Source: Candidatus Woesebacteria bacterium (GTDB lineage: Bacteria > Patescibacteriota > Microgenomatia > UBA1400 > MFAQ01). Taken from it: a stretch of DNA of 64,000 bases. Position numbers and translations under genes: made by a program. Positions 11,868 to 41,245 of the stretch are shown piece after piece. The stretch covers positions 829,881 through 893,880 of the forward strand of contig DAOORK010000001.1 in NCBI GenBank assembly GCA_035389185.1, read 5' to 3'. Within the stretch, counting starts at the first letter, position 1. Every line of letters starts with the position of its first letter. A model generated the notes under the pieces. That model was given only the letters and a program-made list of their open reading frames with translations. It made no database searches and had not been told where the DNA came from.

Positions 11868-12545
11868 TTATTGGCAAGCGTTGGCAGGTAGGGAACACCA
11901 AGATGAAGCTTCGGCGGCACTATTTCGGCCGCAATTCACGGTGTCGTAATTGGGAGCACAGCTGCCCGCTTGAATGGGTTTACAAGCGCTGTCAACACAA
12001 CCATAAAATTTGGTGGCCAAACCAAGACCCGAACAACCCTCGATAATTTCTGCGTCGGTCATGTCGGGAGAGCTGACAATAAATAGTCCGGGACAGTAGG
12101 GATTTGAAGTTGATTCGGAAATATATTCATTGTCAGTTGATTGGGAGTCAAAAAAGGAGTCGCTTTCGGCGATGATGGCATATTTGCTGGGACTGGTTGA
12201 ACCTTTGGGAATGAGCCAGATGGTGTACGACCGTTTGGTGGTTGGGTCGCAGGGCATGGATTCGACATATGGACTAAGAACGTCGGAACCACAGGGATAG
12301 GTAAAGTGATCATCGGCGTCTTTGATGGGAAAGCTGGGATAGTTTTCGTGGTCGGCGTAATAACTTTCCATACCTTTTTGAATACGGGAGATATCGGCTT
12401 TGCGGCGAGCATCGTAGGCTTTATGAATTTGGGCGAGAGGATTGACGCCAATTAAAATCATGAGGCCGATGATGACGAGAATGCTGATGACAACAAGGAG
12501 TTCAACAAGTGTGAAACCGGAAAGATGATGTTGTTTTTTAATCAT
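11868..12545 (-). CDS. Type IV pilin / pseudopilin with a prepilin N-methylation signal
   Basis: Class III signal MIKKQHHLSG|FTLVELLVVISILVI, with Gly-1, Phe+1 and Glu+5. The C-terminal region is Cys-rich. Confidence 0.85.
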   Translation of the reverse strand: MIKKQHHLSGFTLVELLVVISILVIIGLMILIGVNPLAQIHKAYDARRKADISRIQKGMESYYADHENYPSFPIKDADDHFTYPCGSDVLSPYVESMPCDPTTKRSYTIWLIPKGSTSPSKYAIIAESDSFFDSQSTDNEYISESTSNPYCPGLFIVSSPDMTDAEIIEGCSGLGLATKFYGCVDSACKPIQAGSCAPNYDTVNCGRNSAAEASSWCSLPANACQ

Positions 12546-12573: not shown

Positions 12574-15500
12574 TTAATTGATTTTTACACCTTCCATTTT
12601 TAGACTATCGAAATACAGTGAGCCTGTGCTGGTGTTGGAAGGAGAAGTTGTACACCAGCTAGAGTAGAGAGTGTTGGCTCCGTCAAAGCGGAGAGCACGA
12701 ATAAGGTAGATATAGGTATTGTTTGAAGAAATGGGAGAGTCGACGTACTGGGCGGTGTCGGCGGAAAGTGTCTCTACTAGAGTAGCAAGGTCTCCGTTAA
12801 CAGAACTCCAAATTTGGTAATTATCTTCGTTGGTAGCGTTTTCTGTCCAGTTAATAGTTATGCTGGAGTTATCGGAGGCCTTAACGGTAGTACAAGAAGT
12901 AGGGGCCGAAGGATTTCCTTTGGTGGTGAAGGTTTGGGGCGAAGATTGGGCAGTACTCCAAGTGTTGGTGCCAGCCGGGTCGATGGCATAGGCACGCCAG
13001 TAATAGAGGGTGCCGGGGACGAGGTTGGTTTGAACAGTGTAGGTGGCTTGCGTTCCGGAAGTGTAGGCCGTGGATGACTCGGCATTTTGACTGGTCCAGC
13101 CTGTTTGGGAACTGGTTTGATCAAAGGTTTGACAGTTGACAGTCATAAAGACATTAGTACAAAGATGAATTTTGTAGCGGAGATAATCACTATCGACATC
13201 GGTGGTAGTAATTTGGAAAATAGTTGTCAAAGTGATTTCGGTGGCTGAATTGGCAGGAGCGTCTTGAGTGACAACGTTAGGAGCCTGATTTGTGGTGAAG
13301 GAATATGGTGTTGTTTGGGTGGAACTCCAAGTATTTGATCCGGCCGGATCGATAGCATAGGATTTCCAGTAATAAACGGTGCCAAGATTCAAGGCAGTTT
13401 GTATGGTATAGACTCCCTGAACACCTGATGCGTAGGAGACAGCCGACCAACCGGTGGCGGATACTGTTTGGTCGTATGTTTGACAGTTTGTGGTCATGCC
13501 GGGGTCGGTGCAGATTTTGATTTTGTATTTTATATCGTCACCATCGTTGTCTGTGGCAGTGGTTTTGATGGTGGCGATTAAGGGAACACTGGTCGCAGTA
13601 TCACTGGGGAAATCTAAAGTAGGTATGTTGGGAATCTCGCTGGTGGTAAAGGAGTAGGGTGTTGTTTGAGTAGACGACCAGTTATTGGAACCGGCCGGAT
13701 CGATGGCATATGACCTCCAGTAATAGTCTGTATGGGGATCAAGGGGAGTCTGAAGAGTGTAGACTCCTTGAACACCGGATGCATAAGAGGCGGCGGTCCA
13801 ACCGGTAGCGGAGACCGTTTGATCAAAAGTTTTACAACCGATACTCATAGCTGCATCAGTACAAATAATGATTTTGTATTTGAGAGAATCGGATTCAGTG
13901 TCTGTGGCGGTGGTTTTGAGAACCGCGAGTCGGGTGACATGTGTTGCTGTATCTGCAGGAAAATCGAGAGTAGGGGTATTGGGAGGAACGTTTAAGGTGA
14001 CGCCCCAGTCGTAAAGGGATGGAGCACCAGCGGAGTCGGAGAGATTAGACTTAACATAAAGTATGGGATAAGTCGTAGGATTAAGACCGATCAAACTGAC
14101 GGGAGACGAAGTGAATCCAGTAGAATTACCGGGTAATGCCGAATCGGGGATAATGGTAGGGACGCCGGTTACGTCGTAATAAATTTGATAAGTAATATCG
14201 GTACCAGCCTCATCTGTAAACTCCAATGCGTTCCAGACGGCATTGGTATCAATATTCGCGATGGTGATAGGGGTAGAAGTAATGGTTCCCGTGGCAAATG
14301 GTGTGGCGGTGAAGTTATCAATATAAAAAGTATTGTCAGCGTCAGCATTGACGATGGTAATAATGATTTGGTCGATGGCGTCTTTGTTGGCGTTTGCGAC
14401 CCCGGAAATATCCCAAGTGACAGTTTGAAATGCATTCGCGGACAAAATATTTGGAGTGATTTCGGAAGTAGTACCACCTGAGTCATGGATACTTATCTTG
14501 ATATTACTTCCGGTTCTGGTAGATCTTAAATCGAAACTGATTGAAGAAGAGCCAGAAAGATTTATAGCTGATGAAGGGGTACTAATAAGGTTTTGGTTTA
14601 GTGAGGCAGAAGCAGAGGCGATTCCTTTGAGTGAATAGCTGCCTTGAGTTTTGATCGTGGATTCGGAAAAACTTTGAAGAGCATTTCTAACATATCTAAC
14701 AACGACGATACCTGAACCACCCTGGAAATTGGCACTTGTCTGGCTACCACCTCCACCCATACCGGTATTTGCAGTGCCAGCTCCATTTGGTGAAAGTGAA
14801 CTGCTAGTACCACCAACACTGTAGGTAACAGAGGTTCCGGATACTGAGTAATTAAGGCCAGCACCACCCGTTCCGCTGCCAGCTGATGTACCGACACCTC
14901 CAGCACCTCCACCACCCCCAGCGTACCATCCGGAACCGGCTCCTCCTGCGTTTCCCTGTCCAGTTGTGCCACTACCCCCAGCGAGCCCAGTACCGTTTGC
15001 ACTACCACCTCCACCAGAACCCCCATCTTTTCCGGTTCCACCCGGTGATCCACCTCCACCTCCGCCTATGGCGGATAGGGTATTGAAAACTGAATTACCA
15101 CCGTTGGCACTTGCTGTTTGACCTCCATTACCGACAGTGATGGAGTATCCCGTGGCTGTCACGGCGTGAGATGAGTCGTATATTAGACCTCCGCCACCTC
15201 CACCTCCTGAGTTTGTACCGACACCTCCAGCACCTCCTCCAGCGACAACGAGAGCTTCAACATTTCCAACAAATGCAGGAGTAAAAGTACCGTCAGTAGT
15301 AAAGGAATGAACTTTGTAAACACCGACATTGGAAATCGTACCTCCCGTTCCGGTGATTTCGCTAGCAAGATATGCAGATTGAGCTGAAGAATTTGATGAA
15401 TATTCCATAAGATCAACATTGGATGGTGTAACAGAAACGGTAACGGCATCGGTTACAGCCGAGGAAGTGGCGTTGCCGGTATAAGTGTCGGTCGCAAATT

Positions 15501-18453
15501 GATCGGCCATGGTTTCGAACCATCGGTTGGTGGTAAGGGACGTATCAATAGTAAAAGAGCGGGTTGTTGACCATCCAGAGTAAAGATTGGACCCAGACGG
15601 ATCGATGGCTCTGGTGCGATAGTAGTATGTGGTTCCGTTGGACAAGGCACTTTGAAAGGTATAGGAAACGGTGTCTTCGGAAGCAAAAGGGGAGGTGTCT
15701 GCAGGGTTGGTGATGTCGGCAAAACCAGCATCGGTGTCGGAAGATTTGGTGGTAGCACCAGTAAAGGCGGAAGTAGTGTCCCAGCTTATTTGATAAACGA
15801 TGTCATCACTTTCTGGGTCGGTGGCGGAGAACTGAATTTGAGGGGTGGTATTTGCCGTTTTAAGTTTGTCGTGAAGGTAGCTTGAAGAAATCGTGGGTGC
15901 ATTTGGTGGGGAATTGGCGACAATATCGTCAAAATAAAAGGTTGCCCCGGAAGTATCGCTTGTAAACTGAAAGGCAAATTGAGTGACCGCGTCTCTGTCT
16001 GCGGACGAGATACCGGAGATAGTCCAGGTTTTCTTCTCCCAGGTATCGGCAGAGTTTATAGTAATATCGTAGGTTTGTTCATCACTTGCGATTTCCCCAA
16101 ATTGGAATCTGGCGAAGCTCCCAGTATGATCTGACCTGACCCAGAATGTAAGATTGTTGTATGAAGAGATGTTGGTAGCTGTTTTGGTAAGAGTAACGGT
16201 ATCGTCAAGTGAGCCATATATACCGATAAAATTATCAATATAGAAGGTGTTATCAGCATCGGCATTCACAACAGTGATGATAATTTGATCAATGGCATCT
16301 TTATCGGCAGTACTGACTCCGGAGAGATCGATTGTGGCAGTCTGAAAAGTATTGGCAGAAGTAATATTGGGAGTGATTTCGGTTGTTGTGCCACCTGAGT
16401 CATGAAGCCCTACTTTTATGTTGCTACCGGTTCTGGTGGAACGAATGTCGAAGGTGACAGTATTAGAATTTGACAAATCAGCTGGGGAACCGATGGTACG
16501 AGTGAGTGTTTGATTCAGAGAACTGGTAGCTTGAGCAAATCCTTTAAGTGAATATGAACCTTGCGTTTTAATACTAGATTCAGAATATGACTGGAGAGTG
16601 TTATATGGGTATCTGACGATGATAATACCCGAACCACCTGCGGCACCGATTCCATATGAAGCATTATATCCAGCACCGCCTCCACCACCACTGCCGCGGT
16701 TGTCGGCTCCGGCAGTTGGAACCGAGCTGGCTGCACCACCTCCACCGTTTCCACCTCCACATTGTCCAGTTCCTGGTTCTCCATATAAGTTTCTTTGGGC
16801 GCCTCCACCACCACCACCGGCATAACAGACTGATGAACCACTTATGCTATAGGTGACACCTGTTCCTCCATTTGTACCGTGTGCTGTTGCATATGTATTT
16901 ACACCAGCACTTCCCATTCCACCTCCACCAGCACCACCATAATAACTTGTGACGGAATTTCCTCCATTGTATCCTTGGCTACCGGTACCACCTGTGTGAA
17001 CCTGTGATCCAGCACCACCTCCACAACCACCAGCCGCACCGTTTCCATTTCTTCCGCCAGCGCCTCCACCAGTGCCAGTGATTGAAGAAAAGACTGAGTT
17101 ATCGCCGTTGGTTGCCACAGCACCACCTCCACCAACAGTTGCTGTGATATTGCCTGCAGATATGGCAAAGGAGGAGTTATAGACGGCACCTCCAGCTCCA
17201 CCACCACCACCGGCATAGTTTATAGCGTAATATGAGTTTCCACCTCCGCCTCCGCCAACTACCAGCACTTGAACATTACCCGAGTTGGTAACTGCAAGGG
17301 TTCCGCTTGTTGTAAAGGTATGGATAATGTCTGTTCCTGAATAGGTAATGGTGCCACCGGTAGCGGAAAGGGCGTTGGTTGTGTAGGCTGTTTGTGCAGA
17401 TCCGTTAGTAGAGTATTCCATGAGGTCGATAGCGATACTACTTTGGGAGGTTGTCTTGACTTTGACTGAACTTGAGCCCTCTTCTTTAATAGTGGTTTCT
17501 TGAGAAACAACTGTATTGGTAGGATCAGAACTGACCCAGTCAGTAGACGTATCGGCGTTATCAATGACGAGGTCGATGACAACTGGATAGACACGGTTCT
17601 TGTCATTTAGCCAGGCAACACCTTCCGGGGTAAGGACTTTTGAAATTGTCAGTTGATTGCCTTTGGTTTGAACCTCATATTTGATACCGTTTGATGTCCT
17701 TGTTTTGTCGTGAAGTTCATAAAGAACCGGCGCGGGAATACTAAAGACGGTATGGTTTTTGGTATCAGTAAAAGTAAGGCTACCATCGGCGTTTTTTTGG
17801 TATTTTTGGTTGGTTTTAGCAATTTGGTCGATTTTTGTAACGAGATTGGCGGTGGATTTATCGTTGATAACAAATTCTTCAAGTAATCTCGAAGGAGAGA
17901 TGGTGTAGCGGAGATCCATTTGGGGAAAGATATTGGGGTAGGTGAGAGTGCTACCGTTAGCTACTGGCTGGTTGAAGGTGTTGAGCTCGCCAAAAGACTG
18001 GGTTTTTAGAGTGTAAAAAGAAATTTTCCCCAGATTGTTGGAAAAGACGATACTGCCTGAGTCGGTCGGTTTGTTTTTGAAATGGGTGGAAAACTCGTTG
18101 GTGACATTTTTGTAAGAGTAGGTACCAATGTCTTTGACAATGACGGTGTTGGGGGGAAAAGTAACAGGCTTGGTGATGGTGCGATTTAAGAGGAGGAATA
18201 GGATGGTTGATAAAATGGCACAAAACGTGAAAGAAACTAGTATTAATAGTACCACTTTAAGAAAATGAGGCTGGAAATGTCGTTTGAAATGGCTATTTAT
18301 TGGAAAGGTATTTCCAGAAGCCGTTTTAGGGGCATTGTAGAGACGAGCGTTTTTGAGGGTAGCCGGAATAAATTTGAGTCTTTTGGAAATAAGAGAGACC
18401 ACCGGAAAAGTGGAGACGCGCGAGAGTTTGATGGTGTGTCTCTTTTTAAACAC
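12574..18453 (-). CDS. Giant membrane-anchored surface protein (1959 aa) with Gly-rich domains and FN3-like repeats
   Basis: Single uninterrupted ORF with a GTG start and an N-terminal TM helix. It contains two ~400-aa internally duplicated units with (G)n-rich cores, three tandem ~107-aa FN3-like repeats and a terminal FN3-like domain. It lies directly upstream of the pilin gene on the same strand. Confidence 0.85.
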   Translation of the reverse strand: MFKKRHTIKLSRVSTFPVVSLISKRLKFIPATLKNARLYNAPKTASGNTFPINSHFKRHFQPHFLKVVLLILVSFTFCAILSTILFLLLNRTITKPVTFPPNTVIVKDIGTYSYKNVTNEFSTHFKNKPTDSGSIVFSNNLGKISFYTLKTQSFGELNTFNQPVANGSTLTYPNIFPQMDLRYTISPSRLLEEFVINDKSTANLVTKIDQIAKTNQKYQKNADGSLTFTDTKNHTVFSIPAPVLYELHDKTRTSNGIKYEVQTKGNQLTISKVLTPEGVAWLNDKNRVYPVVIDLVIDNADTSTDWVSSDPTNTVVSQETTIKEEGSSSVKVKTTSQSSIAIDLMEYSTNGSAQTAYTTNALSATGGTITYSGTDIIHTFTTSGTLAVTNSGNVQVLVVGGGGGGNSYYAINYAGGGGGAGGAVYNSSFAISAGNITATVGGGGAVATNGDNSVFSSITGTGGGAGGRNGNGAAGGCGGGAGSQVHTGGTGSQGYNGGNSVTSYYGGAGGGGMGSAGVNTYATAHGTNGGTGVTYSISGSSVCYAGGGGGGAQRNLYGEPGTGQCGGGNGGGGAASSVPTAGADNRGSGGGGGAGYNASYGIGAAGGSGIIIVRYPYNTLQSYSESSIKTQGSYSLKGFAQATSSLNQTLTRTIGSPADLSNSNTVTFDIRSTRTGSNIKVGLHDSGGTTTEITPNITSANTFQTATIDLSGVSTADKDAIDQIIITVVNADADNTFYIDNFIGIYGSLDDTVTLTKTATNISSYNNLTFWVRSDHTGSFARFQFGEIASDEQTYDITINSADTWEKKTWTISGISSADRDAVTQFAFQFTSDTSGATFYFDDIVANSPPNAPTISSSYLHDKLKTANTTPQIQFSATDPESDDIVYQISWDTTSAFTGATTKSSDTDAGFADITNPADTSPFASEDTVSYTFQSALSNGTTYYYRTRAIDPSGSNLYSGWSTTRSFTIDTSLTTNRWFETMADQFATDTYTGNATSSAVTDAVTVSVTPSNVDLMEYSSNSSAQSAYLASEITGTGGTISNVGVYKVHSFTTDGTFTPAFVGNVEALVVAGGGAGGVGTNSGGGGGGGLIYDSSHAVTATGYSITVGNGGQTASANGGNSVFNTLSAIGGGGGGSPGGTGKDGGSGGGGSANGTGLAGGSGTTGQGNAGGAGSGWYAGGGGGAGGVGTSAGSGTGGAGLNYSVSGTSVTYSVGGTSSSLSPNGAGTANTGMGGGGSQTSANFQGGSGIVVVRYVRNALQSFSESTIKTQGSYSLKGIASASASLNQNLISTPSSAINLSGSSSISFDLRSTRTGSNIKISIHDSGGTTSEITPNILSANAFQTVTWDISGVANANKDAIDQIIITIVNADADNTFYIDNFTATPFATGTITSTPITIANIDTNAVWNALEFTDEAGTDITYQIYYDVTGVPTIIPDSALPGNSTGFTSSPVSLIGLNPTTYPILYVKSNLSDSAGAPSLYDWGVTLNVPPNTPTLDFPADTATHVTRLAVLKTTATDTESDSLKYKIIICTDAAMSIGCKTFDQTVSATGWTAASYASGVQGVYTLQTPLDPHTDYYWRSYAIDPAGSNNWSSTQTTPYSFTTSEIPNIPTLDFPSDTATSVPLIATIKTTATDNDGDDIKYKIKICTDPGMTTNCQTYDQTVSATGWSAVSYASGVQGVYTIQTALNLGTVYYWKSYAIDPAGSNTWSSTQTTPYSFTTNQAPNVVTQDAPANSATEITLTTIFQITTTDVDSDYLRYKIHLCTNVFMTVNCQTFDQTSSQTGWTSQNAESSTAYTSGTQATYTVQTNLVPGTLYYWRAYAIDPAGTNTWSTAQSSPQTFTTKGNPSAPTSCTTVKASDNSSITINWTENATNEDNYQIWSSVNGDLATLVETLSADTAQYVDSPISSNNTYIYLIRALRFDGANTLYSSWCTTSPSNTSTGSLYFDSLKMEGVKIN
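12890..13980. repeat. Three tandem ~360-nt repeats encoding FN3-like modules inside the giant gene 12574..18453
   Basis: Protein repeats PNTPTLDFPADTAT...SFTT, PNIPTLDFPSDTAT...SFTT and PNVVTQDAPANSAT...TFTT. The DNA segments ~12960-13140, ~13320-13500 and ~13680-13860 are visibly similar. Confidence 0.6.
14320..15410. repeat. Internal duplication unit 2 of the giant gene (paralogous to 16235..17425)
   Basis: Protein DLMEYSSNSSAQSAY...GSGIVVVRYVRNALQSFSESTIKTQGSYSLKG...ADADNTFYIDNF parallels unit 1. The DNA is ~80% similar by eye. Confidence 0.55.
16235..17425. repeat. Internal duplication unit 1 of the giant gene
   Basis: Protein DLMEYSTNGSAQTAY...GSGIIIVRYPYNTLQSYSESSIKTQGSYSLKG...ADADNTFYIDNF. 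Confidence 0.55.
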
Positions 18454-18621: not shown

Positions 18622-21600
18622 TCATTTTGTTTCGACTAACCAGTAATTAAAGGAGATATCATAACCATTGTTGCCGGTGCCGGCGAGGGAAACAGTGAAA
18701 CCAATACCGTCTGTTTTTGATTTAACGTAAAGTACTTTTCCTTTGGTATCTGAGGTTGGAGTGACATAAATTAGAGTTGTTGGAGTAACTTTGGTGTTCA
18801 AGATGGAAATCTCGGTTGTGCCTGCGATAATAGTTGAAGTGCCGATGGTGGCATTGGAATTTGTTTGACCGGAAACAGTAGCAAGAGGGTCATTACCCGA
18901 AGCAATCACCAAACCATTGGTAGTAAGTTGGGCAAAATTGGCCGATTGTGAGGCTATAGTGGAAGAACCAACTGCAAGAGAGCCAGAAACAGAGGCCGTC
19001 TTTGTATCTAAACCTTGAGCAAAGATTGTACCCGTTATTAGGAGGTCGCCGTTGATTAATACTTTTCCGTCTGGATAGAGAGTCATGAGATTGGCAAGTA
19101 GGTGGACTGGTTTGTCGCCTTGGGGTTGGATAAAGAGTTCGTTATCAAAGCTGGAGAGAGCGTTAGTGAAGATGGCGCCGTTGGTCATGAGGTCGTTGGC
19201 AATTAGAGTATGGACACTTAGAGAATTGAGAGCGAGATCCGAAGGAATGACGGCCGAAGTGGTGGCCAAAGGCGAAAGAGACAGGGGATCGGCAGAAGCA
19301 CTGGCGTCTGCGGAGTAGTTTAGGAGAGAGTTGTAACTGCCGTATCTGGCTTGAAGGTTGGCAAGAATGGCAGATGCGGTGGAGTATTTGTCGTTGAGGA
19401 GATTGATTTGGGAATGAAGGGCGTCGATGGTTTGACCTTGGATGTTGTCGGCGTAAAGAGTGCCGGAAATGGTGGCGTTGATCACTTTGAGCTCATCAAT
19501 ATTGGCAATTGGGGAAATAAGAGTGTCGCGGACTGTAAGATTGTCGACGGTTAGTTCTTTGATGACACCGACACCGGCTTGGAAGTTGGCGGCTAAAATA
19601 TTGCTGAAGATGCCGATGTTTTCGATTGCCTCACCGGCGGCGTTGGTAATTTCGTAACTGGCGTTTTGGGCCGCGACTTTGGCAGTGAGAGTATAAGCGT
19701 TGAGATCGGCGATAGCCGGAGTGAGGAATCCTCCGGTACCGACCAAGATGAGAACGGTGTCTTTGCCATTTCCTGGACTCCATGATTCAAGGGCAGTACC
19801 GATGGTTTTTTCACCGATGGTAGCCTTTTTGGCCTTGCCGGGTTCGTTGGAGGAAGTGAGGTAGTCGCCATATTTGATGGCGGCTGAGTCGCTAGCGATT
19901 TTGACGGGGACTCTTCCCGCTAAGGCTAGGAGACGGCGGTCATCGGCTTCGATACCGAGGGTTTGGCCAGCATTGGTGGAGATGACACCGAGGAGACCAG
20001 AGTCATTTTTGGAGTTTGATTTACGGAGGATTGGAACTTTGTAAGAATCAAGTTCTCCGGTGACAGCAACGACATCGCCTGGACCAATACTCTGATCATT
20101 GACACCATAGTACTCAGCAAGGTCAGCACCAAAAACAATGACGTCGAGTCTGAGTTGCTGAGCTAGGCCAGTGTAGTTGTAGAGCTGGACACTGTTTGAG
20201 TCGTCGACGTGTGAAATCTTGTAACCGTCGTTGTAGTCGATGGTGACATTGTTGAGTTTTGGCTGGAAGGCGGTATTGATAGTTGTAAATATCGCCCGAT
20301 ATTGAATGTAGTTGTTGGGTGTGGAAGTGATGTTTGAACCTGAACTGGTGGTATAGACTTTTTCTACTTTGATATTATCAAAATGAATTGTGTTCCAAGG
20401 ATTGGTAAGGTTGGTTATTCTTAACTTAGTAATAGCATCTTTACTTGTGGAGGCAATGTCTGAAAGATCCCAGTATATTTTTTGCCAGGTATTGGTAGCA
20501 TCTATGGTTATAGTTTCTTCCTGTTCTGTTGCCGCAGACTCTCCAAATCCGATTTTTACAGTATTACCTGAAGCAGTAGCATAGACCCAAGCTGTTAGAT
20601 AGTCATATGCAGAGATATCGGTTGCATTTATGGTAGCTTCGGCATAACCTGAAGCGGGTACCGTATTAACAAACTGGGTTGTATTTCCGGCTGTTGCTTC
20701 ATCTTCATCTTCGAACTGGTTGACATTTCGAGTGACTGAACCATCGGATACTGTGGCATTTGTACCAGTCCAGTCGGTATGGGTGTCGGCAGTTTGAAGG
20801 GACAGATAATTGGTTCCATCGACTGCAGGTTTCCAAGCTTCCCACGTTCCGTCGGTCGGATCGGTAGAATTACCTGTTCTTGTTTGGAAAGTAATTTTGC
20901 CGTAGGCTGATGTAGTAGCTTCCCATCTGATTTTGTCTAGAGTAACAGCGTTGGGAGTTTCAATAGGTGCGGAGTGGTAAATACCATATGGATAGTAAGG
21001 TTGTTGGGTATAAGTAGCGGTGGGGGATGATGTTGATCCTGTGTAGGAGGAAGTGTAGTAAATTGCAGTACGTCCGTTACCTCCATTTCCGCCACTTCCT
21101 AATGTTGCAGAACCACCGGTTCCTCCTGTGGCGGATACTAAATTTGACCCAAGGGTGAGAGTACCTGCATTGAGAAGTACAGAGCCTCCAGCACCACCAC
21201 CACCACCACCCTGATTGCTTCCTCCTGCGGTGCCGTTATTGCCGTTTGCACTAATTGTACCGGATACAGTTATACTGTTTGCCGATATTGCAATTATTCC
21301 ACCACCATTAGCACCTGCTTTCGGAGGATAAGTGCTGGTATAGAAACCACCTCCTGCTCCGCCTCCAGATCCAAAAAATAGTGTTGTTAAATTGGTATTG
21401 CCATATGTTCCTCCACCTCCACCACCAGCACCGCTGACGGATCCTGAGGCTAATCCTCCGTCACCGGAGGCATTTGTACTGCCGTTTCCACCAGAGGTGA
21501 CTCCGCTACCTCCGTAACCAAAAGAACCGTAACCACCACCACCACCACCACCACCATACCAGGTGTTAGTGGATCCACTCATATCTCCACCTCCACCACC

Positions 21601-24600
21601 AGCCCCTCCCGCGGTTGCAGATCCTGTTCCTGGGGCAGCATTGTGAGCACCTCCACCGCCACCACCACAAACACCATTGGTTCCTGGGCGATCTGCACCT
21701 GTAAGGTAAGATGCTCCAGTTCCACCGCCACTTTGAGAACAAAAAGCCTCACCTCCGTATGGATAACTTACAGCAATAGGACCTCCCACAAACCCGATTC
21801 CGTTTGCATTTATTGTGCCCGATACTGAAACTGTACCATTTGCTCTAAAGAATAAAACTCCACCCTTAACTCCATCCCAGGCACTGGGGGTAAAATTTTG
21901 ACTTGCATTTACAGTTACATTTGTATAATTGGGAACTCTTTGAAGCATAACTCTTTGTGTTCCGTCAAGGATTCCAAGGTTTGAATCATCGGAAGAGTTG
22001 TCCCCGTAATTTTTAGTTTTAGAAGTTGTAAAGGTAATTGTGTTTGTAGATATTGATGCAATCCTTAACGTCTCGTAATTACCAGTGTTAATGGATGCAG
22101 TGCTGGTTCCTTGAAGATTTATGAGTAATATTTCGTCACCAGCAACCAGACAGCCTGTAGAAGGGGTAGTGGAAAGAACAGCTGTATTGGTAGTTAGGGT
22201 CGTAACTGAATAATTAACAGCATCGCCACCATCGGCACAGGAACGTCCATTTATTAGGCTAGTGGTGTTGATGTTGGTGCTTGATGAAACCGTAATGGCT
22301 CCGTCTGCTCCGGTACCCGTATCAACCGATGGGGAGAGTTCGACATCGGTGAGTCTTGATTGAGTTCTGGTTTTGGAGTTGCCAATGGCATCGAACTGGT
22401 TTTGTAGGCTCTGAATAATGTTGTGGGTGAAATTGCTGATATTATCCCAAGCACTTGTGAGGGTGTTGTAGACCCAGCCGGTGACGGAGATGTCATTATT
22501 GGTACCTCCGCCGTAGGCGCTGTTGTAGGCCAAAGTGAGGGATGCAGCATTGGCTACACTGGCTGATGAGGAAGAGTATTTGGTCATGTCGAGAGCGAGA
22601 CGGTGGAAAGCACTGGTGCCATCGGTGTTCAGATAGAGATCGTTGTAGGTGTTGTCGTAGTAAAGAGTACCTCGAGTGGTGGCAGTTGGAGCGGCTGTTT
22701 GAGGAGTAAAAACGGCGGCAATACCAATGTTTAGGGTGGCTGAAACACTGGCATCACCGACAACTTCAAGCTTGTTACTGCCACTGAGGTTGGTGATACT
22801 GCCGACCTTGAGACCGCCTGAAGTGTGCCAGTCGCCATTGGCTAGGATATTATTGGCTATAGAGATTGATTCTGTACCCGTGCCTCCTTGATAGATACCT
22901 TCGGTGAGATAGAGATCTTTCCAGGCATGGCCTGAGGATCCAAGATGGTCTACGTTGGTTGTTTGGGGGAGGATACCGCCATTTGTTTCTAAAGCGAAAG
23001 TGTAGCCGCCGACGGGTTGGTCTATGGCTGTGTTGAAGCCGATGGCGATGGGATTCATGAAGAAAGTGTTGTAGACGGAATCACCTGAGAGACGAATTTT
23101 TGCTGAGGAAGTGGCACCGTCGTTGGTGGAAGCAAAAAGATTGATAGAGTCAGACCAGTTATTTTTTGTGTAGATAATGCCTTCAGAAGTTCTGTTGAAG
23201 TAACCTCCAAAGCTTTGCCATGCTGAACCATCATAATAGAGAGGGGCATTCGCGGTAGTACTATATATAAGGGAACCTGATCCGAGGGCTACCGGTTGAC
23301 TGGTATCAGCGAAATTTCCGAGAATAAGTTGGCCGCTTATGGTGGCGTTGAGGAGATTTTTGAGACTATCTCCGGAGAAGTCGATGAAACCTGAAGCGGC
23401 GTTGAATGTAAGATCACCGGTACTATTGCTAATAAGAGAGTTGGTACCAGCAATTTCTAATTTTGCTGAAGGAGTAGCCGTACCAATACCAACATTACCT
23501 GTACCAGAAAAAGTGAAGTTAAAGCCGTCGAGAGCAACATCAGTATTAGAGGTAAGTGTTCCCCCAAGTGAAACTGTGTTGCCGAGACGGGTTAAGCCAT
23601 TGGTAAAAGTAAGAGCTGCTTCAAAAGAATTTTGATCGTAGGAAGTTGAGACGATTGATGACCCATCATAAGCGAGAAATTTTCCGGAAGTAAAAGTGGT
23701 ATTGTTTGTGCCTCCATTTAGAATTGGAAGAGTGCCGGTGACATCTGAGTTTGCCAGATTAACCGCTGATGAAGAAAGGTTGCCGAAAGAGTCAGAGTGA
23801 ACAATGCCAGTACTAAGAGACGAAAAACGAACTGAACCTGAAACAGAAGCACTGCCAAGAACATCGAGGGTTGCAAGTGGTGTAGTAAGACCAATTCCAA
23901 TTTGTCCGGCAGAATCAATGGTCATGGCCACACTAGAACCAAGGTCGTTTATGGAGGCGTCACCTATTGAGTTGGTATCCGTAAACTTTGCGAGGCGATT
24001 GGTGGTGCCATTGATGTTGGATAGAGGTGCAAAATATGAAGCATGTTGGCCATCGAGAAGATCGGCATTGAGGTTTTCGTTTAAGGTTGTTGAAGTGATT
24101 ACAAAAGGAGACGAACCTGTAGCGAGGGTCGATGTAAGCTGACCACTCATATTTATGGTAGTGATGCCGGAAACGGCTCCTGAAGTAGAGATGTCCCATG
24201 ATGAAGAATCAATAGCAACTGTGTTTGAGCCGCCGCCTATAGAGACTGCTCCGGTTGAGGTGCCGGTGTTGATATTGGTTGTGTAATTTGAAGAAGCATT
24301 TAAATCTATATTTCCACCAGATGAGGTGATGATGCCTGTGTTGGTAATACCGGCTACTGCGGCTATAGCTCCGGAAGAGTTTACTTGGAAAAGATCTCCA
24401 TCACCAACAGTAAATAACGATGCGGGGGTTGTGTCACCGATACCAAAATTGCCGGTGTTAATCCAAGAATTTTCACCGGCAGTGCCAGCAAGATGTACCA
24501 AAGCAGAAGAAGTGGCTGTGGCTCCGAGATTAAGAGAGTCGGTGATGTAAAGGGGAGCTATCGAGCCAGAGGTTCTTTGCCAGTTACTTCCTCCTCCGGT

Positions 24601-27600
24601 GCCTGTCGGTGCATCGATCCATTGGACTCCAGTGCCTGTTGTAGAAAGAACTTGTCCCGAGGTACCGGCACTACCATTGTCATACAAAGCGCCAGTAAGA
24701 TTGATGTCACCGACAACATCAAGATCATAGGCGGGATTGGCAAGTCCAATACCAACTTGGGTGTTGGCTTCGTTTGCTGCATTAAAAGCGATATCTCCAG
24801 TGTTGGTGTAAATGGCATAGTTGTTGGTAGCCGCGCCGGAAATACTTCCAAGATAGATACCATATTTTGAAGTACCGACAGCACTGGTCATGGCGGCAGT
24901 CTTGATACCATACATAGTTGTAGGGGAGTTATAGGCACCCAAATCGGCAATACTCAAACCAGTTAAATTAGCAAAGGTTCCGGTACTTGAGCCATAGGTG
25001 CTGAGATTGGCAATGACGCCATTGGTGGTACCACCGGTGCCGATGATACCGATACCATAGTCGAGACCTCTTAAATTGGTGACTGTACCACTACCGGATT
25101 GATATGCTCTACCACCAACGCCAGCAACATTATTTGTGTAGTTTTGGGTTCCAGCAGCATAAATGTAGGTGAGGTTGCCAAAGCTTTGATCGCCATCACT
25201 TGTGGCTGAGTTTACGGTATAGGTTGTTTTCAAACCGGCATTTGTGGCACCAGCGTTGACAGCTCTGGTTGGGACACTGACGATTCTACCAACACCATCA
25301 ATAGAAACAAGAGTACCTCCGCTACTATTTTGCCATTCTTGGAGATTAGCTGATTGGCCAGTGGTACCTTTGACTGTGAGGGGAATGTTTGTGGCTAGGG
25401 AGGCGGACATAGTGGAAGCTCCAAGTGTTTTAAGACCTCCGGCGATGTCTAACTTAACAGTGGGGTTGACAGTGCCGATACCAAAATTGCCAGAGTTATT
25501 GATCCAAGAATTCTCTCCAATCGTACCGGCTAGGTGTACCAAGGCAGAAGAAGTGGCAGTTGAACCTAGATTAAGGGAGTCGGTGATGTTTTTTGGTGCT
25601 AGGGAACCAGAAGTTCGTTGCCAGTTACCAACAGTCGAAGTATCTACCCATGAGACTCCTGTTCCAGTCGAGGTTAAAACTTGAGTGGCTGTACCCGCAC
25701 TCCCTGAGGTACGTAAAGCACCAGTGAGGTTAATGTCTCCAGTGACATCTAGGGCATATGAGGGAGTAGTGTCTCCAATACCAAAGTAACCAGTGTTAAT
25801 CCAGGAGTTTTCTGCAGCAGTGCCTGCAAGGTGCACTAGAGCTGAGGCTGTAGCTGTGGCTCCGAGGTTAAGAGAGTCGGTAATGTTAAGAGGAGCGAGT
25901 GAACCATCTGTACGTTGCCAGAGGTTACCGGAAGCGGCTGAAATATCAACACAGGTGAGAGTGTCGCCAACTGCTTGGATAGCTTGTCCGGCAGGACAAG
26001 CTGAAGGATAGTTTTGGAGTTTTGTCCAGTCGAGTTCACTGATCTCGGTATTGTTGATCTCGCCACTCGGGAGAGAAACTGTGCCAGAGGAAACAGTGAG
26101 GCCGGTGAGGCCGCTTAATGCGCCCGTGGCAAGTAAATCTCCATTACTGGCAATGGTGAATCTGGTGATTCCGGCTGAAGATGCGGAAAAAATGGAGTCC
26201 GTGCCACCATTAGTATTAATAAGGGTACGTCCATTGACACCAACAATAAAACGGTCAGTTTCGGTTGATCCTGAGGTGAGAGCGAGAAGATTACCCGTGG
26301 CCGTGTCGTTGCCGACATAGCCGGAAATTAGAGAACCGGAAGTGAGATTGGCATTTTCGATTCGGAAAGTGTCTGTTGTTGTGGTTGCGCCGAGAATCTG
26401 CACTTGTCCTCCTCCAATTGCATCTGGCTGAAGAATAATATCGCCACCGGAGTTGGCGGTAGTAGAAATGGTAATTGCTTGACCATTTAGGGTAAAAGTT
26501 CCGGAAGTAGAGTTTATGGTAGGGGAAGCAGCGGCAATATTGATGTCTCCATTTTCATCGACTACAGGAATAGTGTTAAGAGTAGCGGCGGCGGATGCCG
26601 GATACCCCTGGAGGGTTTCGGAGTTTAGGGCGTAACCAACAGTGGCGATTTGCTGGCGGGGGGTAAGGGTTTCGGATCCAACAGTGACCTCTAAGAAAAC
26701 GTCACGATTTTCCGTGAAAACTGTACTAGCGATTTCTTGACCGCAAGTGCCGTTTCCGATGAGAGTATTAAAGATACCATTGGAGTCTGGAGTGATCGAA
26801 CAAGTGTTGGAGGTGTAGAGCTGAGTACCACTGGTAGCTGCGTTCCAGAGTTTGAAGATAACGTTTACGGCAGTAACGATTGGAGTACCTGAAGAGTCTG
26901 TGAGTCGGCCTTGAAATGAAAGCTGTCTTCTGGGTACAGTGGGCACGGCAGCGGAGGACGAGGGGGCTTGCTTGATGATTTGGTTGTAGCCAAAGATAAC
27001 CATGGCTGAGGTGGCTAGAGCAAGTATGGCCAGATGAATATAGGGAGTAAAAGGAAGGGAGTTATAGCGATGGTAAAGAAGAACAAGAGGGTGTCTGGAA
27101 GCCTTTTTTGGGGTATTTCTTTTATCTCTGAGCCTTTCCATCCAAGAAAGAGGAGCTAGATGGGGAACTTCAATCTTGATTTCAAAAGGGTTAGCGGGGA
27201 GATATTTTTGAGAAAAACAATACTTGGCGAACTTTTTGATTGAAGATTGACGACGATTTATGACAGATGTACTAGTGTGACTAAGTTTGAGATAGGTAAT
27301 GTAGGTATTTAGATGAGATTCACTTAAAATATTCTCTAATCTTTGATCTAAGAAGGGGGTTTCGTTAGCACTCCACGCAAAGAAGTGATTGAGGTCAGAA
27401 ATGTAGTTTTTGATTGTTGAATAGGTCTTTTTTTCTCTAGCCAAAGAAAGCTTAAAATGCTCAAGAATCTTACTGAGTATAGGTAGGGCATTAGAGACAG
27501 GAGCAGAGTCGGTGTTTTCAAAAGAAAAATGTGGTTTTGGGGAATGGTTTAGATTAGAAACAGAACTTTGAAGGCCAAACTTTGAGGAAAGAAAGGTAGA

Positions 27601-34322: not shown

Positions 34323-35051
34323 TTATAATTCCATTTTATCGGATGATTCTTCAATTGACTTTTCGAGAATACCGGCAGAAACATAAAGACTAATTAAGTT
34401 GTTTTGAACATTCTTTAGTTTATCGATAAGCGCCTTGGGAAGATTGTGTTTTTGGCCTTTGCTGTTGAAATAAATGATAATGTCGGTTATGGAGTTGAGA
34501 ACACCGGCCAGTGATGGTTTAGCGGTGGTAGATATCCAAAGAAGGCTATCAACCTGTTCATCTTTGATGGCTTCTTTAAGGATCTGAACCTTGCCTTCGG
34601 ATTGAAGATTTTTAAGATATGTTTTACCAAAAATGACTGCTAAGGGAGTAATTAGAACCAAGGAGGCTAGGTTCACAATTACGGGAGTGTTGAGGAGTTG
34701 CAGATTTTGCCAGAGAAAGATGGAAACCAGAGTCAATGAAGCAATTACTGCCTGGTAAGGAGAAATCAAAAGAGCCGTGGCAAAAGCTAGGAAGTCTAAG
34801 ATAAAGAAAAGGGGTGAGTTGATCCCGCCAGTCGAAAATACAAGCAGCAGGGTAATAGAAACGAGAATAAGGGCGGTGAAATAGAAACCATGACTAGTTC
34901 TTCGAAAAATATATTTAGAGGCAAAATAGAGCAGTATAAGAGCTCCGGTAAGCTGAAGATTGTATGAGTTTAGGCTTGGAGTAGAGGTCCAGAAAGAAAT
35001 TAAAATAATTGATACAGCCAAAACAATAGAGCGAACAAGTTTGGAACGCAT
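34323..35051 (-). CDS. Polytopic membrane protein, hypothetical
   Basis: 242 aa with ~6 hydrophobic helices. No recognisable motif. Confidence 0.65.
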   Translation of the reverse strand: MRSKLVRSIVLAVSIILISFWTSTPSLNSYNLQLTGALILLYFASKYIFRRTSHGFYFTALILVSITLLLVFSTGGINSPLFFILDFLAFATALLISPYQAVIASLTLVSIFLWQNLQLLNTPVIVNLASLVLITPLAVIFGKTYLKNLQSEGKVQILKEAIKDEQVDSLLWISTTAKPSLAGVLNSITDIIIYFNSKGQKHNLPKALIDKLKNVQNNLISLYVSAGILEKSIEESSDKMEL

Positions 35052-35310
35052 ACATTAATAATACCAGTATTGAATAAAGGAATCTATTTGGATATTAATG
35101 CGGAAATTAGTAAAAAACTTTGCGTTAATTACTGATATATTTAGTTCTATATTTGGCAGTCTACTTTATATTCTGCTTAATTATATGAACTTGATTATCT
35201 TGTGAAATTGTAAAATATTGCAGGTTGTTTAAAGGAAATATTATAGAGAATATTTGCGGAAAATATTCATTAATGGAACGTAGTTGTTGGGTTGATGATA
35301 TATTTTATTT

Positions 35311-35916
35311 GTGGAGATAAAAACAATATGGGGATACTTGAAAAATTCAACCGGTCTGGATCGGTTTTTGCTCGGAGTAATCATTGTTGGACTAGTAGTT
35401 TGTTCAATTAGCGTTTTTAGAGGCATTCTAATAAGCCGTCAGGTTCAAGTTGAGTATTTGAGTAACGGAGATGTGTCTTCCGGGAGTATAACGAAGGTAT
35501 ACGTGGATATTGAAGGGGCGGTAGTTTATCCGGGAGTCTATGAATTGAACCTCGGATCAAGAATTAAAGATGTTTTGGTGTTAGCGGGTGGTTTATCTGA
35601 AAGTGCTGATAGAGATTTTTGTGAAAAGAATATTAATATGGCAGAACAAATTAAAGATGGACAGAAGATTTATATCCCTTCTGGGGGAAATAGTGATGCC
35701 GATAGGGGGTATTTTGAGGCTAGTATTCAAAGTAAAAAGATTAGTATAAACACTGCAAGTATCAGTGAGTTGGATACCCTTTGGGGTATAGGTGAGTCTC
35801 GCGCCGAAAGTATTGTGAAAAATAGACCGTATCAATCGGTTGATGATTTGGTTACAAAAGGAGTATTGCCAAGTAGTATTCTGGAAAGAAATAGAGAGCT
35901 GTTGTCAGTTTTTTAA
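35311..35916 (+). CDS. comEA: Competence protein ComEA (DNA-binding helix-hairpin-helix)
   Basis: A TM anchor plus a C-terminal tandem HhH (SINTASISELDTLWGIGESRAESIVKNRPYQSVDDL). It lies immediately upstream of comEC. The start is uncertain: GTG at 35311 or TTG at 35338. Confidence 0.8.
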   Translation: MEIKTIWGYLKNSTGLDRFLLGVIIVGLVVCSISVFRGILISRQVQVEYLSNGDVSSGSITKVYVDIEGAVVYPGVYELNLGSRIKDVLVLAGGLSESADRDFCEKNINMAEQIKDGQKIYIPSGGNSDADRGYFEASIQSKKISINTASISELDTLWGIGESRAESIVKNRPYQSVDDLVTKGVLPSSILERNRELLSVF

Positions 35917-35918
35917 AT

Positions 35919-37034
35919 ATGAGAAGGAGAGTATTTTTTCTCCTGGTGATACTAATCTTTAGATTTATTCTAGGGTGGTTGGAGAGTACCAAGTATAGCC
36001 AAAATGCAGTTATAAAAGTTACGGGAAATATATACAAGATAGATCATAATGATACAAAATGTGTCATTAGAATAGGTGACATTTTTGTTGATCCCCGCAA
36101 AGACTGTTTCTTTTCACAAGGGGATAAGGTAGAGATAATTGGCAGAGTGAGGAGGGGTGTGATAGACAATATTTTGGGAAGAATATGGCTTGACAGCGCG
36201 GAAATAGTGGTTTTTGATAAAGAGGAAGATAAGCCAGATGAACCAGGGGTAATTGAAGCAGTACTGATTAAGTTTCGTGAAAAGATGCTGTCTCGCTACC
36301 GTATGCATTTACCTGAGCCTGAGTCGAGCCTGGTTGCGGGAATAATTTTGGGATACAAAAAAGATATAGGGCGAGAATTTTACGACAAAATGATAAAGAG
36401 CGGTACGATACACATCGCTGTTGCTTCAGGATACAACATTATGTTGGTAGGGGGAACGACATTATCTATTTGTCTGTGGTTTTTGAAGAGAAAAAAGGCA
36501 ACGATAGTCTCGATTTTTTTAATGGCTGTTTATGCTTTGGAAGCTGGAGGTGAGCCTCCTGTGGTAAGGGCGGTGATTATGGGGATAGTGGTCTTTTTGG
36601 CTGCCTGTATCGGCAGAAAAGTAATCTCTTGGTGGATTCTTTTGGTTACTGGCTGGTTGATGGTGATTATTGAACCCTTGTTATTGCTTGACGTAAGTTT
36701 TCAGCTATCTATGGCGGCAAGCGTGGGTTTGATGATAGTTGAGCCATGTTTGAGAAAGAAGATAGAGAATTGGGATCGGAGATTGTCTGAGTTGGTGTCT
36801 GGTTCGGGGATCTTGAGTTCAGTATCGACTATGGCAATGACAGTGCCAATTATTTGGTACCAGTTTGGGAGAATGAGTCTGATTGGTATATTAAGTAATA
36901 CTTTGATATTACCGTTTGTGCCATTGTTGATGATCTTGGGGGCGGGTATGCAGATTCTTCCGAGATTGTTTTTTTGGCCAACCTACATAATGGCGCACTG
37001 GATTGTGGGGGTGATTGAGTTTTTTGGAATGTAA
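35919..37034 (+). CDS. comEC: ComEC/Rec2 N-terminal part (DUF4131 plus competence membrane domain)
   Basis: The polytopic competence domain (LVAGIILGYKKDIG...TIHIAVASGYNIMLVGG...) ends at a TAA 8 nt before the MBL-domain ORF. Confidence 0.8.
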   Translation: MRRRVFFLLVILIFRFILGWLESTKYSQNAVIKVTGNIYKIDHNDTKCVIRIGDIFVDPRKDCFFSQGDKVEIIGRVRRGVIDNILGRIWLDSAEIVVFDKEEDKPDEPGVIEAVLIKFREKMLSRYRMHLPEPESSLVAGIILGYKKDIGREFYDKMIKSGTIHIAVASGYNIMLVGGTTLSICLWFLKRKKATIVSIFLMAVYALEAGGEPPVVRAVIMGIVVFLAACIGRKVISWWILLVTGWLMVIIEPLLLLDVSFQLSMAASVGLMIVEPCLRKKIENWDRRLSELVSGSGILSSVSTMAMTVPIIWYQFGRMSLIGILSNTLILPFVPLLMILGAGMQILPRLFFWPTYIMAHWIVGVIEFFGM

Positions 37035-37042
37035 GATGAAGT

Positions 37043-40322: not shown

Positions 40323-40396
40323 TTTTAACCTCCTCTGTTAAAGTTCAAACTTGGAGTTGATAATAACATAGGAATAGGGTATTTACGAAATTGTTG

Positions 40397-41243: not shown

Positions 41244-41245
41244 AA

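Follow-up and report, generated by a model that had tools for sequence, protein, structure and literature searches.

A giant fibre protein at a Microgenomates pilus locus carries two predicted recombinase-derived core-binding domains on the cytoplasmic side of its membrane anchor

Results

A 3083-residue protein with tandem core-binding domains, one transmembrane helix and a long extracellular part

Why would a giant surface protein of an ultra-small (CPR, Microgenomates) bacterium carry domains of the kind with which Xer-type recombinases grip DNA? The question arose from an initial annotation of a 64,000-nucleotide stretch of a Candidatus Woesebacteria genome (GCA_035389185.1, contig DAOORK010000001.1, positions 829,881–893,880; hereafter the window), which described a 3083-aa surface protein with two tandem XerC/XerD-like SAM/core-binding-like domains in a cytoplasmic N-terminus and no catalytic recombinase domain, and suggested a pilus-associated or host-attachment apparatus. 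To define the architecture, the open reading frame and its translation were examined first. The ORF (18622..27873, minus strand) starts with ATG and encodes 3083 aa. Profile searches with Pfam gave significant SAM-like hits above the gathering threshold (Phage_int_SAM_1 family). Core-binding (CB) domain 1 comprises aa 6–99 (27577..27858, minus strand) and CB domain 2 aa 129–221 (27211..27489, minus strand; SAM_4/SAM_5 at aa 137–233), and the AF2 model predicted the four-helix CB fold with confidence. The two domains are separated by a disordered linker (aa 100–128, 27490..27576, minus strand; pLDDT below 50 for aa 106–128) whose length varies among homologues. In contrast, no hit to the catalytic domain with its R-K-H-R-H/W-Y active site (PF00589) was obtained at E ≤ 1, and the Xer equivalog models were matched only at profile positions 8–94 of 290, at 52–61 bits against cut-offs of about 330. 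Searches of PDB sequences with the whole N-terminus or with the N-terminal family alignment gave nothing; only a single-domain profile, made by pooling the two domains, reached Xer and Cre. The top PDB hit, 9i5v ('RaiA'), is a P. gingivalis Xer-like-RaiA fusion of which only 34 RaiA residues were modelled, and says nothing about CB function.

We next asked on which side of the membrane the CB domains lie. CB domain 2 is followed by a basic juxtamembrane segment (aa 222–274, 27052..27210, minus strand; net charge +6 and pI 10.6 for aa 233–274) with conserved PL(S/A)W..R and Y..Y motifs, and then by a single TM helix (aa 275–299, 26977..27051, minus strand; hydropathy peak at aa 275–297, AF2 helix at aa 276–299), the position of which is conserved in about 45 family representatives. 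There is no N-terminal signal peptide, and the net charge is +14 for aa 1–274 and –89 for aa 300–3083. Together with the split relatives described below, these results support an N-in, C-out (type-II) topology, in agreement with the initial annotation.

The part beyond the membrane begins with a conserved stalk base (aa 315–411, 26641..26931, minus strand; 'LSFQGRLTD...'), predicted by AF2 to be an Ig-like beta-sandwich (aa 318–411, pLDDT above 90), in which R316, L318, F320, Q321, G322 and R323 are invariant in the family. It matched NCBIfam Bdello_MAT_N (NF053851) at aa 315–379 with E = 1.3e-6, but at 28.3 bits, below the cut-off of 60, and a Foldseek search against BFVD gave only generic Ig-like (Big-1) and weak minor-tail hits. 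A repeat-rich shaft follows (aa ~550–1550, 23224..26226, minus strand), with repeats of roughly 100 aa (about 50% identical, around aa 620–840 and 1068–1188). The protein contains six G[IV]G[TLD]xxPxxxL[DE][VI] motifs, which resemble the capping-loop consensus V-G-G/N-pi-x-x-P-x-x-x-L of the Bdellovibrio MAT (mosaic adhesive trimer) fibres (PMC10769870). A glycine-rich region (aa ~1852–2330, 20884..22320, minus strand; 36% Gly in aa 2001–2200) gave a hit to NCBIfam AgmC_N (aa 1852–2111, E = 8e-18) that was again below cut-off. The C-terminal ~350 aa (aa 2730–3083, 18625..19686, minus strand) are 36–70% identical to the C-termini of seven family members, whereas the middle ~1900 aa are mosaic between orthologues. 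Pfam and PHROGs searches of five extracellular segments found no family, and no S74 domain was found. The 'tail-fibre-like' label of the initial annotation rests on motifs and the sub-threshold Bdello_MAT_N hit only. Similarly, its statement that poly-Gly domains are shared with the neighbouring 1959-aa protein was not confirmed: BLASTP found only one shared 89-aa stretch, located elsewhere (aa 2432–2519 against 1311–1395, 35% identity), and Pfam Gly_rich_2 hit the neighbour but not this protein.

The architecture defines a conserved family, with CB domain 2 split in several lineages

To examine whether the protein is an isolated fusion, its homologues were collected. Of 716 cluster representatives at E ≤ 1e-3, about 45 are 600–6346 aa long and share the CB-(CB)-TM-'LSFQGRL' arrangement, and 270 stretches were confirmed in GTDB species genomes; all informatively named ones are Microgenomates. 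Orthologues are 69–74% identical over aa 1–300 and 2173–2524 aa long. We conclude the architecture is not a fusion artefact. When architectures were tabulated for 86 loci, some relatives had only one CB domain. In several lineages (junctions in ten loci) CB domain 2 is split in its helix2–helix3 loop (about aa 172–178) into two translationally coupled ORFs, joined by TAAATG, or by an 11-nt overlap with AAAGGAG 9 nt before the ATG. In these relatives CB1 plus half of CB2 forms a separate ORF with no signal peptide or TM, which places the module in the cytoplasm and suggests that the two halves reassemble. The in-frame stop between the halves might be taken as a hint of readthrough or recoding. 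However, the junctions are TAA-ATG or SD-ATG overlaps, in different frames and with different gaps, sometimes with a whole inserted ORF, and this possibility was rejected. The apparent split in one further locus is a ~50-nt tandem duplication and is probably an assembly or mutational break.

The gene lies in a pam-type pilus locus

The gene is the last large gene of a conserved Microgenomates pam-pilus locus, pam denoting the CPR-specific donor-strand-exchange pilus (Troman et al., bioRxiv 10.64898/2026.03.03.709456). The six-gene pam-type operon upstream (28484..35051, minus strand) encodes a 242-aa polytopic TM protein, a 261-aa PamT-like protein, chaperone-like proteins of 328 and 322 aa, each with a signal peptide, beta domains and a C-terminal TM, a 477-aa Pam-pilin-like protein and a 512-aa Big_13 protein. 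The NCBIfam hits (CPR_pilus_PamT, 1.9e-13; CPR_Pam_pilin_C, 7e-6 and 9e-6) have significant E-values but are below the curated cut-offs. This assignment replaced a WxL/Csc-like reading based on a weak WxLIP_PGBD hit. Synteny was observed in 38–68 loci (47–68 loci for the association with Pam pilins and membrane-anchored PapD-like chaperones). No Pam_pilin_C hit was obtained by profile search of the giant protein itself, which has its own TM anchor. The preprint notes a 'tail fibre-like protein' that co-localises with the pam operon, but gives no domain description and does not mention an integrase-like, CB or cytoplasmic domain.

Downstream lie a second giant surface protein (12574..18453, minus strand; 1959 aa, N-terminal TM at about aa 60–94, Gly_rich_2) and a prepilin-type pilin of 225 aa (11868..12545, minus strand; N_methyl E = 2e-5, GspG 2.6e-8, ComGC 6.8e-5), a homologue of which directly follows the giant gene(s) in at least 7 related loci. 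The comEA (SLBB+HHH_3) and comEC (Competence) genes and a separate MBL-domain ORF (35311..37819, plus strand) are transcribed divergently from the pam-type operon; the same neighbours occur in two related loci and were detected by tblastn in 5–9 loci, although flank length limits what can be seen. The pilus-associated or host-attachment interpretation of the initial annotation is thus supported and can be sharpened to the pam locus.

Candidate DNA-contacting residues and a candidate operator

We asked whether the CB module has kept features expected of DNA binding. Both domains are basic across the family (median pI 9.5–9.6; 87–94% above pI 8). The family profile aligns without gaps to Cre 34–95, so that K28/N29 fall on Cre K43/M44 and T80/N82/R83 on Cre T87/Q89/Q90, positions in helices B and D, which presumably contact the major groove in Cre-loxP. 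N29, T80 and R83 are invariant and K28 and N82 at least 90% conserved in the family alignment, but only R83 stays invariant when the two domains are pooled; XerD has Arg at this position. The conserved residues are largely the canonical CB-fold signature, so they may be kept for folding alone.

Next, the DNA upstream of the gene was examined. A small 44-aa TM ORF (27890..28024, minus strand; MLINDYSQQNW...) lies directly upstream, is conserved in alignment, and was found by tblastn about 140–230 nt upstream of the CB gene in 19 loci. It is preceded by a promoter-like site and leader (28025..28119, minus strand; TTGACT-17-TATATT at 28119..28091, 10 of 12 matches). The ~60-nt leader is near-invariant in 7 orthologous loci although the proteins are only about 70% identical; Rfam found nothing credible in it. 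Further upstream (28160..28390, minus strand) lies an array of five TWCCGCA half-sites, including the palindrome TTACCGCA-ATAAGT-TGCGTTAA (28227–28248), in a region strongly conserved in orthologues. In the 600 nt upstream of the gene in 35 clusters sharing less than 50% identity, TTACCGC/TACCGCA was the top enriched 7-mer (18/35 against 1.5 expected). The density of T[ATC]CCGCA was 2.75/kb upstream, about 6-fold above the 0.46/kb in other non-coding DNA, and 0.32/kb in coding DNA of the same loci. Inverted pairs preferred 6–7-bp spacers and direct repeats a 10-bp spacing. Two further copies (35099 and 35255) lie in the divergent pam/comEA intergenic region (35052..35310). However, 6 of 86 loci have no copy, no covariation between half-site variants and CB residues was seen, and the window palindrome also scores as a weak terminator-like hairpin. 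The element is a candidate operator, but could be the site of an unrelated regulator.

Discussion

CPR bacteria live attached to other microbes, yet how they sense and regulate attachment is almost unknown. Our favoured but tentative reading is that the extracellular part is a MAT/tail-fibre-like attachment fibre, probably multimeric, working alongside the Pam pilus and the GspG/ComGC-like pilin in contact with a host or a surface, and that the cytoplasmic CB module has kept the DNA-binding face of tyrosine recombinases and binds double-stranded DNA at the membrane, although no experiment or direct computation shows such binding. The best candidate target would be the TWCCGCA half-site arrays and 7-6-7 palindromes upstream of its own transcription unit and in the pam/comEA divergent promoter region; the CB module is the only recognised cytoplasmic nucleic-acid-binding-type domain found in the conserved pam-to-pilin cluster. 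The protein would then be a one-component, membrane-tethered regulator coupling the state or abundance of the surface fibre to expression of the pam-fibre(-competence) locus. Where CB domain 2 is split, the soluble CB1+half-CB2 protein is expected to dock on the cytoplasmic tail of the fibre by completing the four-helix bundle. Against this reading, a 3000-aa fibre is an odd sensor for a transcription factor, and neither trimerisation nor MAT membership is established.

Next in standing, though unlikely, is that the CB-like bundles no longer bind DNA and serve as a cytoplasmic anchor or assembly platform, for example to fix the N-in topology of a giant signal-anchored protein, to bundle the chains, or to dock cytoplasmic or membrane partners of the Pam or type-IV-pilus machinery. 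The split variants show that domain 2 can work as a non-covalent docking interface, the 44-aa TM protein and the 242-aa polytopic protein are possible membrane partners, and some relatives manage with one CB domain. However, no partner has been identified, and this explanation does not account for the basic character and the residues at the Cre helix B and D positions being kept across the whole class, nor for the conserved cis-element next to the gene. More doubtful is a non-specific tether, in which clustered CB domains hold chromosomal or newly acquired DNA at the membrane under the attachment/DNA-uptake site, alongside ComEA/ComEC and the ComGC-like pilin, without regulating transcription. 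The adjacent comEA-comEC, the conserved pilin and the basic module are consistent with it. In contrast, ComEC would deliver single-stranded DNA whereas CB domains grip duplex DNA, comEA/comEC adjacency was seen in only a few loci within the limits of the flanks, and a specific conserved motif argues for specific binding.

A recombination-linked role, in which the CB module recruits or competes with a true tyrosine recombinase at core-like sites to drive or control phase or antigenic variation of the mosaic fibre gene, is very unlikely. The gene is mosaic in the middle and conserved at both ends, the 7-6-7 palindrome has the layout of a recombinase core site, and CGCATA(A/T) appears to resemble the inner XerC arm of E. 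coli dif, GCGCATAA. However, that resemblance rests on only 6–7 bases, no recombinase catalytic domain is detectable anywhere in the 64-kb window, and the sites lie upstream of the promoter and do not flank an invertible or exchangeable segment. An inert integrase relic fused by accident, as the database label 'site-specific integrase' on fragments of these proteins might suggest, is effectively refuted by retention of the architecture with invariant residues across a whole bacterial class, even when split into two coupled ORFs; the AF2 fold is also confident.

Recombinase-fold proteins re-used as DNA-binding regulators are already known: MrpR of SPbeta (PMC10516654), SroF of phi3T (bioRxiv 10.1101/2025.11.27.690993), the plant ALOG domain and yeast Ndc10. 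Those proteins are soluble, and MrpR and SroF keep both recombinase domains, whereas the present protein keeps the CB domain only, covalently tethered to the membrane and to a giant surface fibre. Compared with XerC/XerD-type recombinases, it lacks the catalytic domain and catalytic Tyr, and the CB domain is duplicated in tandem, then followed by a TM helix and about 2780 extracellular residues. With ToxR/CadC/TcpP-type regulators it shares an N-terminal cytoplasmic DNA-binding-type domain (inferred here from homology), a single TM, a C-terminal extracytoplasmic domain and candidate repeat operators upstream of a promoter, but the fold is a CB four-helix bundle rather than an OmpR-type winged helix and the outside part is a fibre rather than a small sensor domain; this is an analogy only. 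Possible resemblances to MAT fibres (PMC10769870) are a beta-rich domain next to the membrane or export signal, with only a sub-threshold Bdello_MAT_N hit, and recurring VGxGxxPxxxL-type loop motifs; the composition is also mosaic, and the organism lives on other bacteria. In contrast, MATs have a cleaved signal peptide and variable C-terminal tips, often with an S74 domain, whereas this protein has an uncleaved signal anchor with a cytoplasmic module, a variable middle and a conserved C-terminus.

Four literature searches found no description of a CB-TM-fibre fusion. A stronger form of the favoured reading, unlikely on present evidence but not excluded, is a new class of one-component transmembrane regulator, in which a giant host-contact fibre is coupled through one TM helix to a tandem, sometimes split and reassembled, Xer-derived module that recognises recombinase-core-like TWCCGCA sites and so controls the pam-pilus/fibre/competence locus of Microgenomates. 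It would be the first membrane-tethered use of a tyrosine-recombinase DNA-binding domain and a direct surface-to-DNA signalling route in CPR bacteria, which have few known regulators; the split forms would offer a natural split-domain docking system. On a practical note, the annotation of fragments of these genes as 'site-specific integrase' in MAGs inflates counts of mobile elements in CPR genomes.

Domain organization and predicted topology

The ORF at 18622..27873 on the minus strand starts with ATG and encodes 3083 aa. To test the initial annotation, which had proposed two tandem recombinase-type core-binding (CB) domains ahead of a TM helix, aa 1-270 were searched against Pfam. Phage_int_SAM_1 was matched at E=2.2e-13 (50.7 bits against a gathering cut-off of 22.3) in two separate stretches, together with Phage_int_SAM_4 (E=8.4e-7) and Phage_int_SAM_5 (E=5.5e-5). 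The XerD and XerC equivalogs of NCBIfam were matched at E about 1e-16, but only over profile positions 8-94 of 290, with scores (52-61 bits) far below the whole-protein cut-offs of about 330. No catalytic Phage_integrase domain was found. An AlphaFold2 (AF2) model built on 28 homologues (mean pLDDT 82) showed two four-helix bundles (aa 6-99 and 129-221, pLDDT above 90), a disordered linker (aa 106-128) and a long helix at aa 276-299. Hydropathy analysis detected one TM segment, at aa 275-297. The N-terminal 274 residues carry a net charge of +14 (pI 9.7), whereas residues 300-3083 carry -89 (pI 4.4) and are rich in T, S, G and N. The motif G[IV]G[TLD]xxPxxxL[DE][VI] occurs six times, and roughly 100-aa repeats that are about 50% identical are present. 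The sharing of poly-Gly domains with the neighbouring 1959-aa protein, also proposed in the initial annotation, could not be confirmed.

We hold this anatomy, a cytoplasmic tandem CB module without a catalytic domain, one TM helix and a giant fibre-like region, with high confidence. The protein is not a tyrosine recombinase, because the catalytic domain, a defining feature of that class, was searched for and not found, and the current 'site-specific integrase' labels on its fragments are misannotations. The CB domain and the fibre of the pam neighbourhood are each of a known kind; for their fusion we found no published description.

Conservation of the architecture across Microgenomates

We asked whether the fusion is an isolated accident. 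A phmmer scan, without a profile, of 1.84 billion representative proteins with aa 1-300 as query found 716 proteins at E<=1e-3. About 45 of these are 600-6346 aa long, with the CB region at the N-terminus and a TM segment around residue 230-350, and in most of them an 'LSFQG(R/K)L' motif follows about 45 residues later. A scan of one genome per GTDB species confirmed 270 stretches. Among the 80 loci returned, every informatively named one is Microgenomates (Collier-, Woese-, Shapiro-, Roizman- or Pacebacteria); the rest carry only generic labels (bacterium, Patescibacteria group) or labels such as Pseudomonadales, Gammaproteobacteria, Spirochaetia, Paceibacterota or Melioribacter, which we take to be binning or naming errors. 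The closest relatives (about 71% identity) are Collierbacteria. This fits the GC skew of the window (1-64000), which is strongly positive (+0.05 to +0.36, mostly above 0.15) in nearly every 2-kb bin (one bin about 0) irrespective of gene orientation; the cumulative skew rises almost linearly. This matches the strand G/C disparity already reported for Collierbacteria, Beckwithbacteria and Ch65 of order UBA1400 (PMC7143001).

When 86 loci were tabulated with domain-specific HMMs, most encoded CB-CB-TM-stalk in one ORF, a clade had a single CB domain, and about a dozen had the module split into two ORFs. In L001, a JGI metagenome contig (10289-19959 and 9880-9980), the orthologous giant gene carries Hint/intein-splicing domains, that is, inteins inside a surface fibre gene, and its CB region is broken by a ~50-nt tandem duplication. 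A Beckwithbacteria fragment (P0185) also showed Hint/intein Pfam hits.

Two-gene versions of the CB module

In the split loci (all loci are designated by L numbers), the break always falls in the loop between helices 2 and 3 of CB domain 2. The upstream ORF (160-195 aa, CB1 plus half of CB2) has no signal peptide or TM, and the downstream giant ORF starts with the other half of CB2, followed by the TM and the stalk. The junctions differ between lineages. TAA is immediately followed by ATG in L040 and L058, and the junction is TAA-ctt-ATG in L047. In L005 there is an 11-nt overlap with AAAGGAG 9 nt upstream of the ATG, and the resulting ...KG(E/A)LPNG* C-terminus recurs in four protein clusters; a fused relative of the L005 type also exists (P0170). 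Larger gaps hold a small ORF (L002, L003, L006) or a whole inserted gene (L073, L078). In the last two loci a 700-800-nt segment is inserted between the two halves of CB domain 2 (L073:5326-6027 and L078:2058-2851), which in L073 carries a whole ORF (...VIVDWANVHGWEEKLRW..., possibly NYN/LabA-like), while in L002 and L003 a 50-62-aa ORF with a DPxxEGxPxV motif sits there instead. We conclude that these are real, translationally coupled two-gene versions rather than products of recoding. Accordingly, the CB module must be cytoplasmic. We further infer that the two halves of domain 2 very probably reassemble, docking the soluble subunit onto the tail of the fibre.

Association with a pam-type operon

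The six genes upstream on the same strand (28484-35051, minus strand) form a pam-type operon. The 261-aa protein matched NCBIfam CPR_pilus_PamT (E=1.9e-13) and CPR_Pam_pilin_C, and the 477-aa protein matched CPR_Pam_pilin_C (E=9e-6); both end in ...AAG(T/S)Y(Q/E)N.I.(F/Y).A...F. The 328-aa and 322-aa proteins have a signal peptide, beta-rich domains and a C-terminal TM helix, the architecture described for the membrane-anchored PapD-like chaperones PamC and PamD (Troman et al. 2026 preprint). The 512-aa Big_13 protein has a multi-TM C-terminus. Since all these E-values are significant but below the curated cut-offs of NCBI, we refer to the genes as Pam-like. By tblastn, homologues of these genes were found upstream of the CB gene, on the same strand and at consistent distances, in 38-68 of the loci. 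A 44-aa single-TM ORF (MLINDYSQQNW...LPVIFLLVISAK; 27890-28024, minus strand) lies 16 nt upstream of the giant gene and is conserved at the same place in 19 related loci. The same preprint notes that 'a tail fibre-like protein' consistently co-localises with the pam operon, but does not mention any integrase-like or cytoplasmic domain.

Downstream of the giant gene lie a second giant protein (1959 aa, N-terminal TM, Gly_rich_2) and a prepilin-type pilin (GspG E=2.6e-8, ComGC E=7e-5). A homologous pilin directly follows the giant gene(s) in at least seven loci. Transcribed divergently from the pam operon are comEA and, directly downstream of it, comEC, which is encoded as two ORFs, one with the Competence domain (35919-37034, plus strand) and one with the metallo-beta-lactamase (MBL) domain (37043-37819, plus strand). 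The same neighbours, with the same split of ComEC, appear in L002 and L003.

The extracellular part

Residues 315-379 gave a sub-threshold hit to Bdello_MAT_N. AF2 predicted a confident Ig-like sandwich at aa 318-411, for which only generic Big-1 and minor-tail matches were found among viral models. The GIGTxxPxxKL motif resembles the capping-loop consensus of Bdellovibrio MAT fibres (PMC10769870). In contrast, the pattern of variation is the reverse of the variable-tip pattern of those fibres: among orthologues the first 560-830 aa and the last ~350 aa (18625-19686, minus strand) are conserved (36-70% identity), while the ~1900-aa middle (19687-25400) is mosaic in content and length. Pfam and PHROGs searches found nothing there, and the conserved C-terminus has no family hit. 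We therefore describe the protein as fibre-like or MAT-like, not as a MAT member.

Possible functions of the cytoplasmic module

Three lines of evidence favour retained DNA binding by the CB module. First, both domains are basic throughout the family (median pI 9.5-9.6, with 87-94% above pI 8). Second, a single-domain family profile aligns without gaps to Cre residues 34-95, with alignment endpoints identical to those of the PDB search. K28/N29 fall on Cre K43/M44, and T80/N82/R83 on Cre T87/Q89/Q90, positions within helices B and D, which appear to contact the major groove in Cre-loxP. N29, T80 and R83 are invariant and K28 and N82 are at least 90% conserved among 28 homologues; R83 (R207 in domain 2) remains invariant in the pooled two-domain alignment, and XerD has Arg at the same position. 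However, the conserved residues are largely the canonical CB signature, and MRG domains with the same fold bind proteins. The family profile also matched (E=1e-8) residues 7-100 of a 401-aa P. gingivalis protein deposited as 'RaiA' (PDB 9i5v chain 14), which has a Xer-type CB domain there and appears to be a recombinase-like-RaiA fusion, of which only 34 RaiA residues were modelled in the ribosome (PMC12123416); this says nothing about CB function.

Third, there is a conserved cis-element. In the window, five copies of (A)TTWCCGCA(W)A lie 290-510 nt upstream of the gene, including the palindrome TTACCGCA-ATAAGT-TGCGTTAA. The whole 600-nt region is strongly conserved in seven orthologous loci whose proteins are only about 70% identical. 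Besides the TWCCGCA half-site arrays, the conserved non-coding region (28025-28390, minus strand) includes a promoter-like site (TTGACT-17-TATATT) and a near-invariant ~60-nt leader containing a direct repeat, CGTCTAAT-N2-CGTCTAAT, with no match in Rfam. An unbiased 7-mer count over 35 clusters that share less than 50% N-terminal identity placed TTACCGC/TACCGCA first (18 of 35 against 1.5 expected). The density of T[ATC]CCGCA is 2.75 per kb in the 700 nt upstream, compared with 0.46 per kb in other non-coding DNA and 0.32 per kb in coding DNA of the same loci. Inverted pairs prefer 6-7-bp spacers (7 of 10), and direct repeats recur at 10 bp. Two more copies sit in the pam/comEA divergent intergenic region (35052-35310). 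Two inverted arms around a 6-8-bp centre is the layout of recombinase core sites, and the CB module is the only recognised cytoplasmic nucleic-acid-binding-type domain found in the conserved cluster. None of this proves binding: the palindrome also scores as a weak terminator-like hairpin, six loci lack the motif, and no covariation between site variants and CB residues was found. In L002 and L003, two distant loci with few or no TWCCGCA copies, a PaaX-like regulator gene sits between comEA and the pam genes (L002:4641-5465, L003:4803-5555), which may point to an alternative regulator there.

We tentatively favour, as an inference, a membrane-tethered, Xer-derived DNA-binding module that most likely recognises the TWCCGCA repeats and couples the fibre to expression of the locus. 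A protein-docking adaptor is the closest alternative, somewhat less likely but not far behind. A non-specific DNA tether is unlikely. A recombination-linked role is more doubtful still, as no recombinase is detectable in the window, and an inert relic is only a remote possibility.

Elsewhere in the window, three tRNA-Ala genes lie within 1.4 kb (40396-41792), two with anticodon CGC on opposite strands and one with GGC, interleaved with two small ORFs (40548-41243 and 41322-41678).
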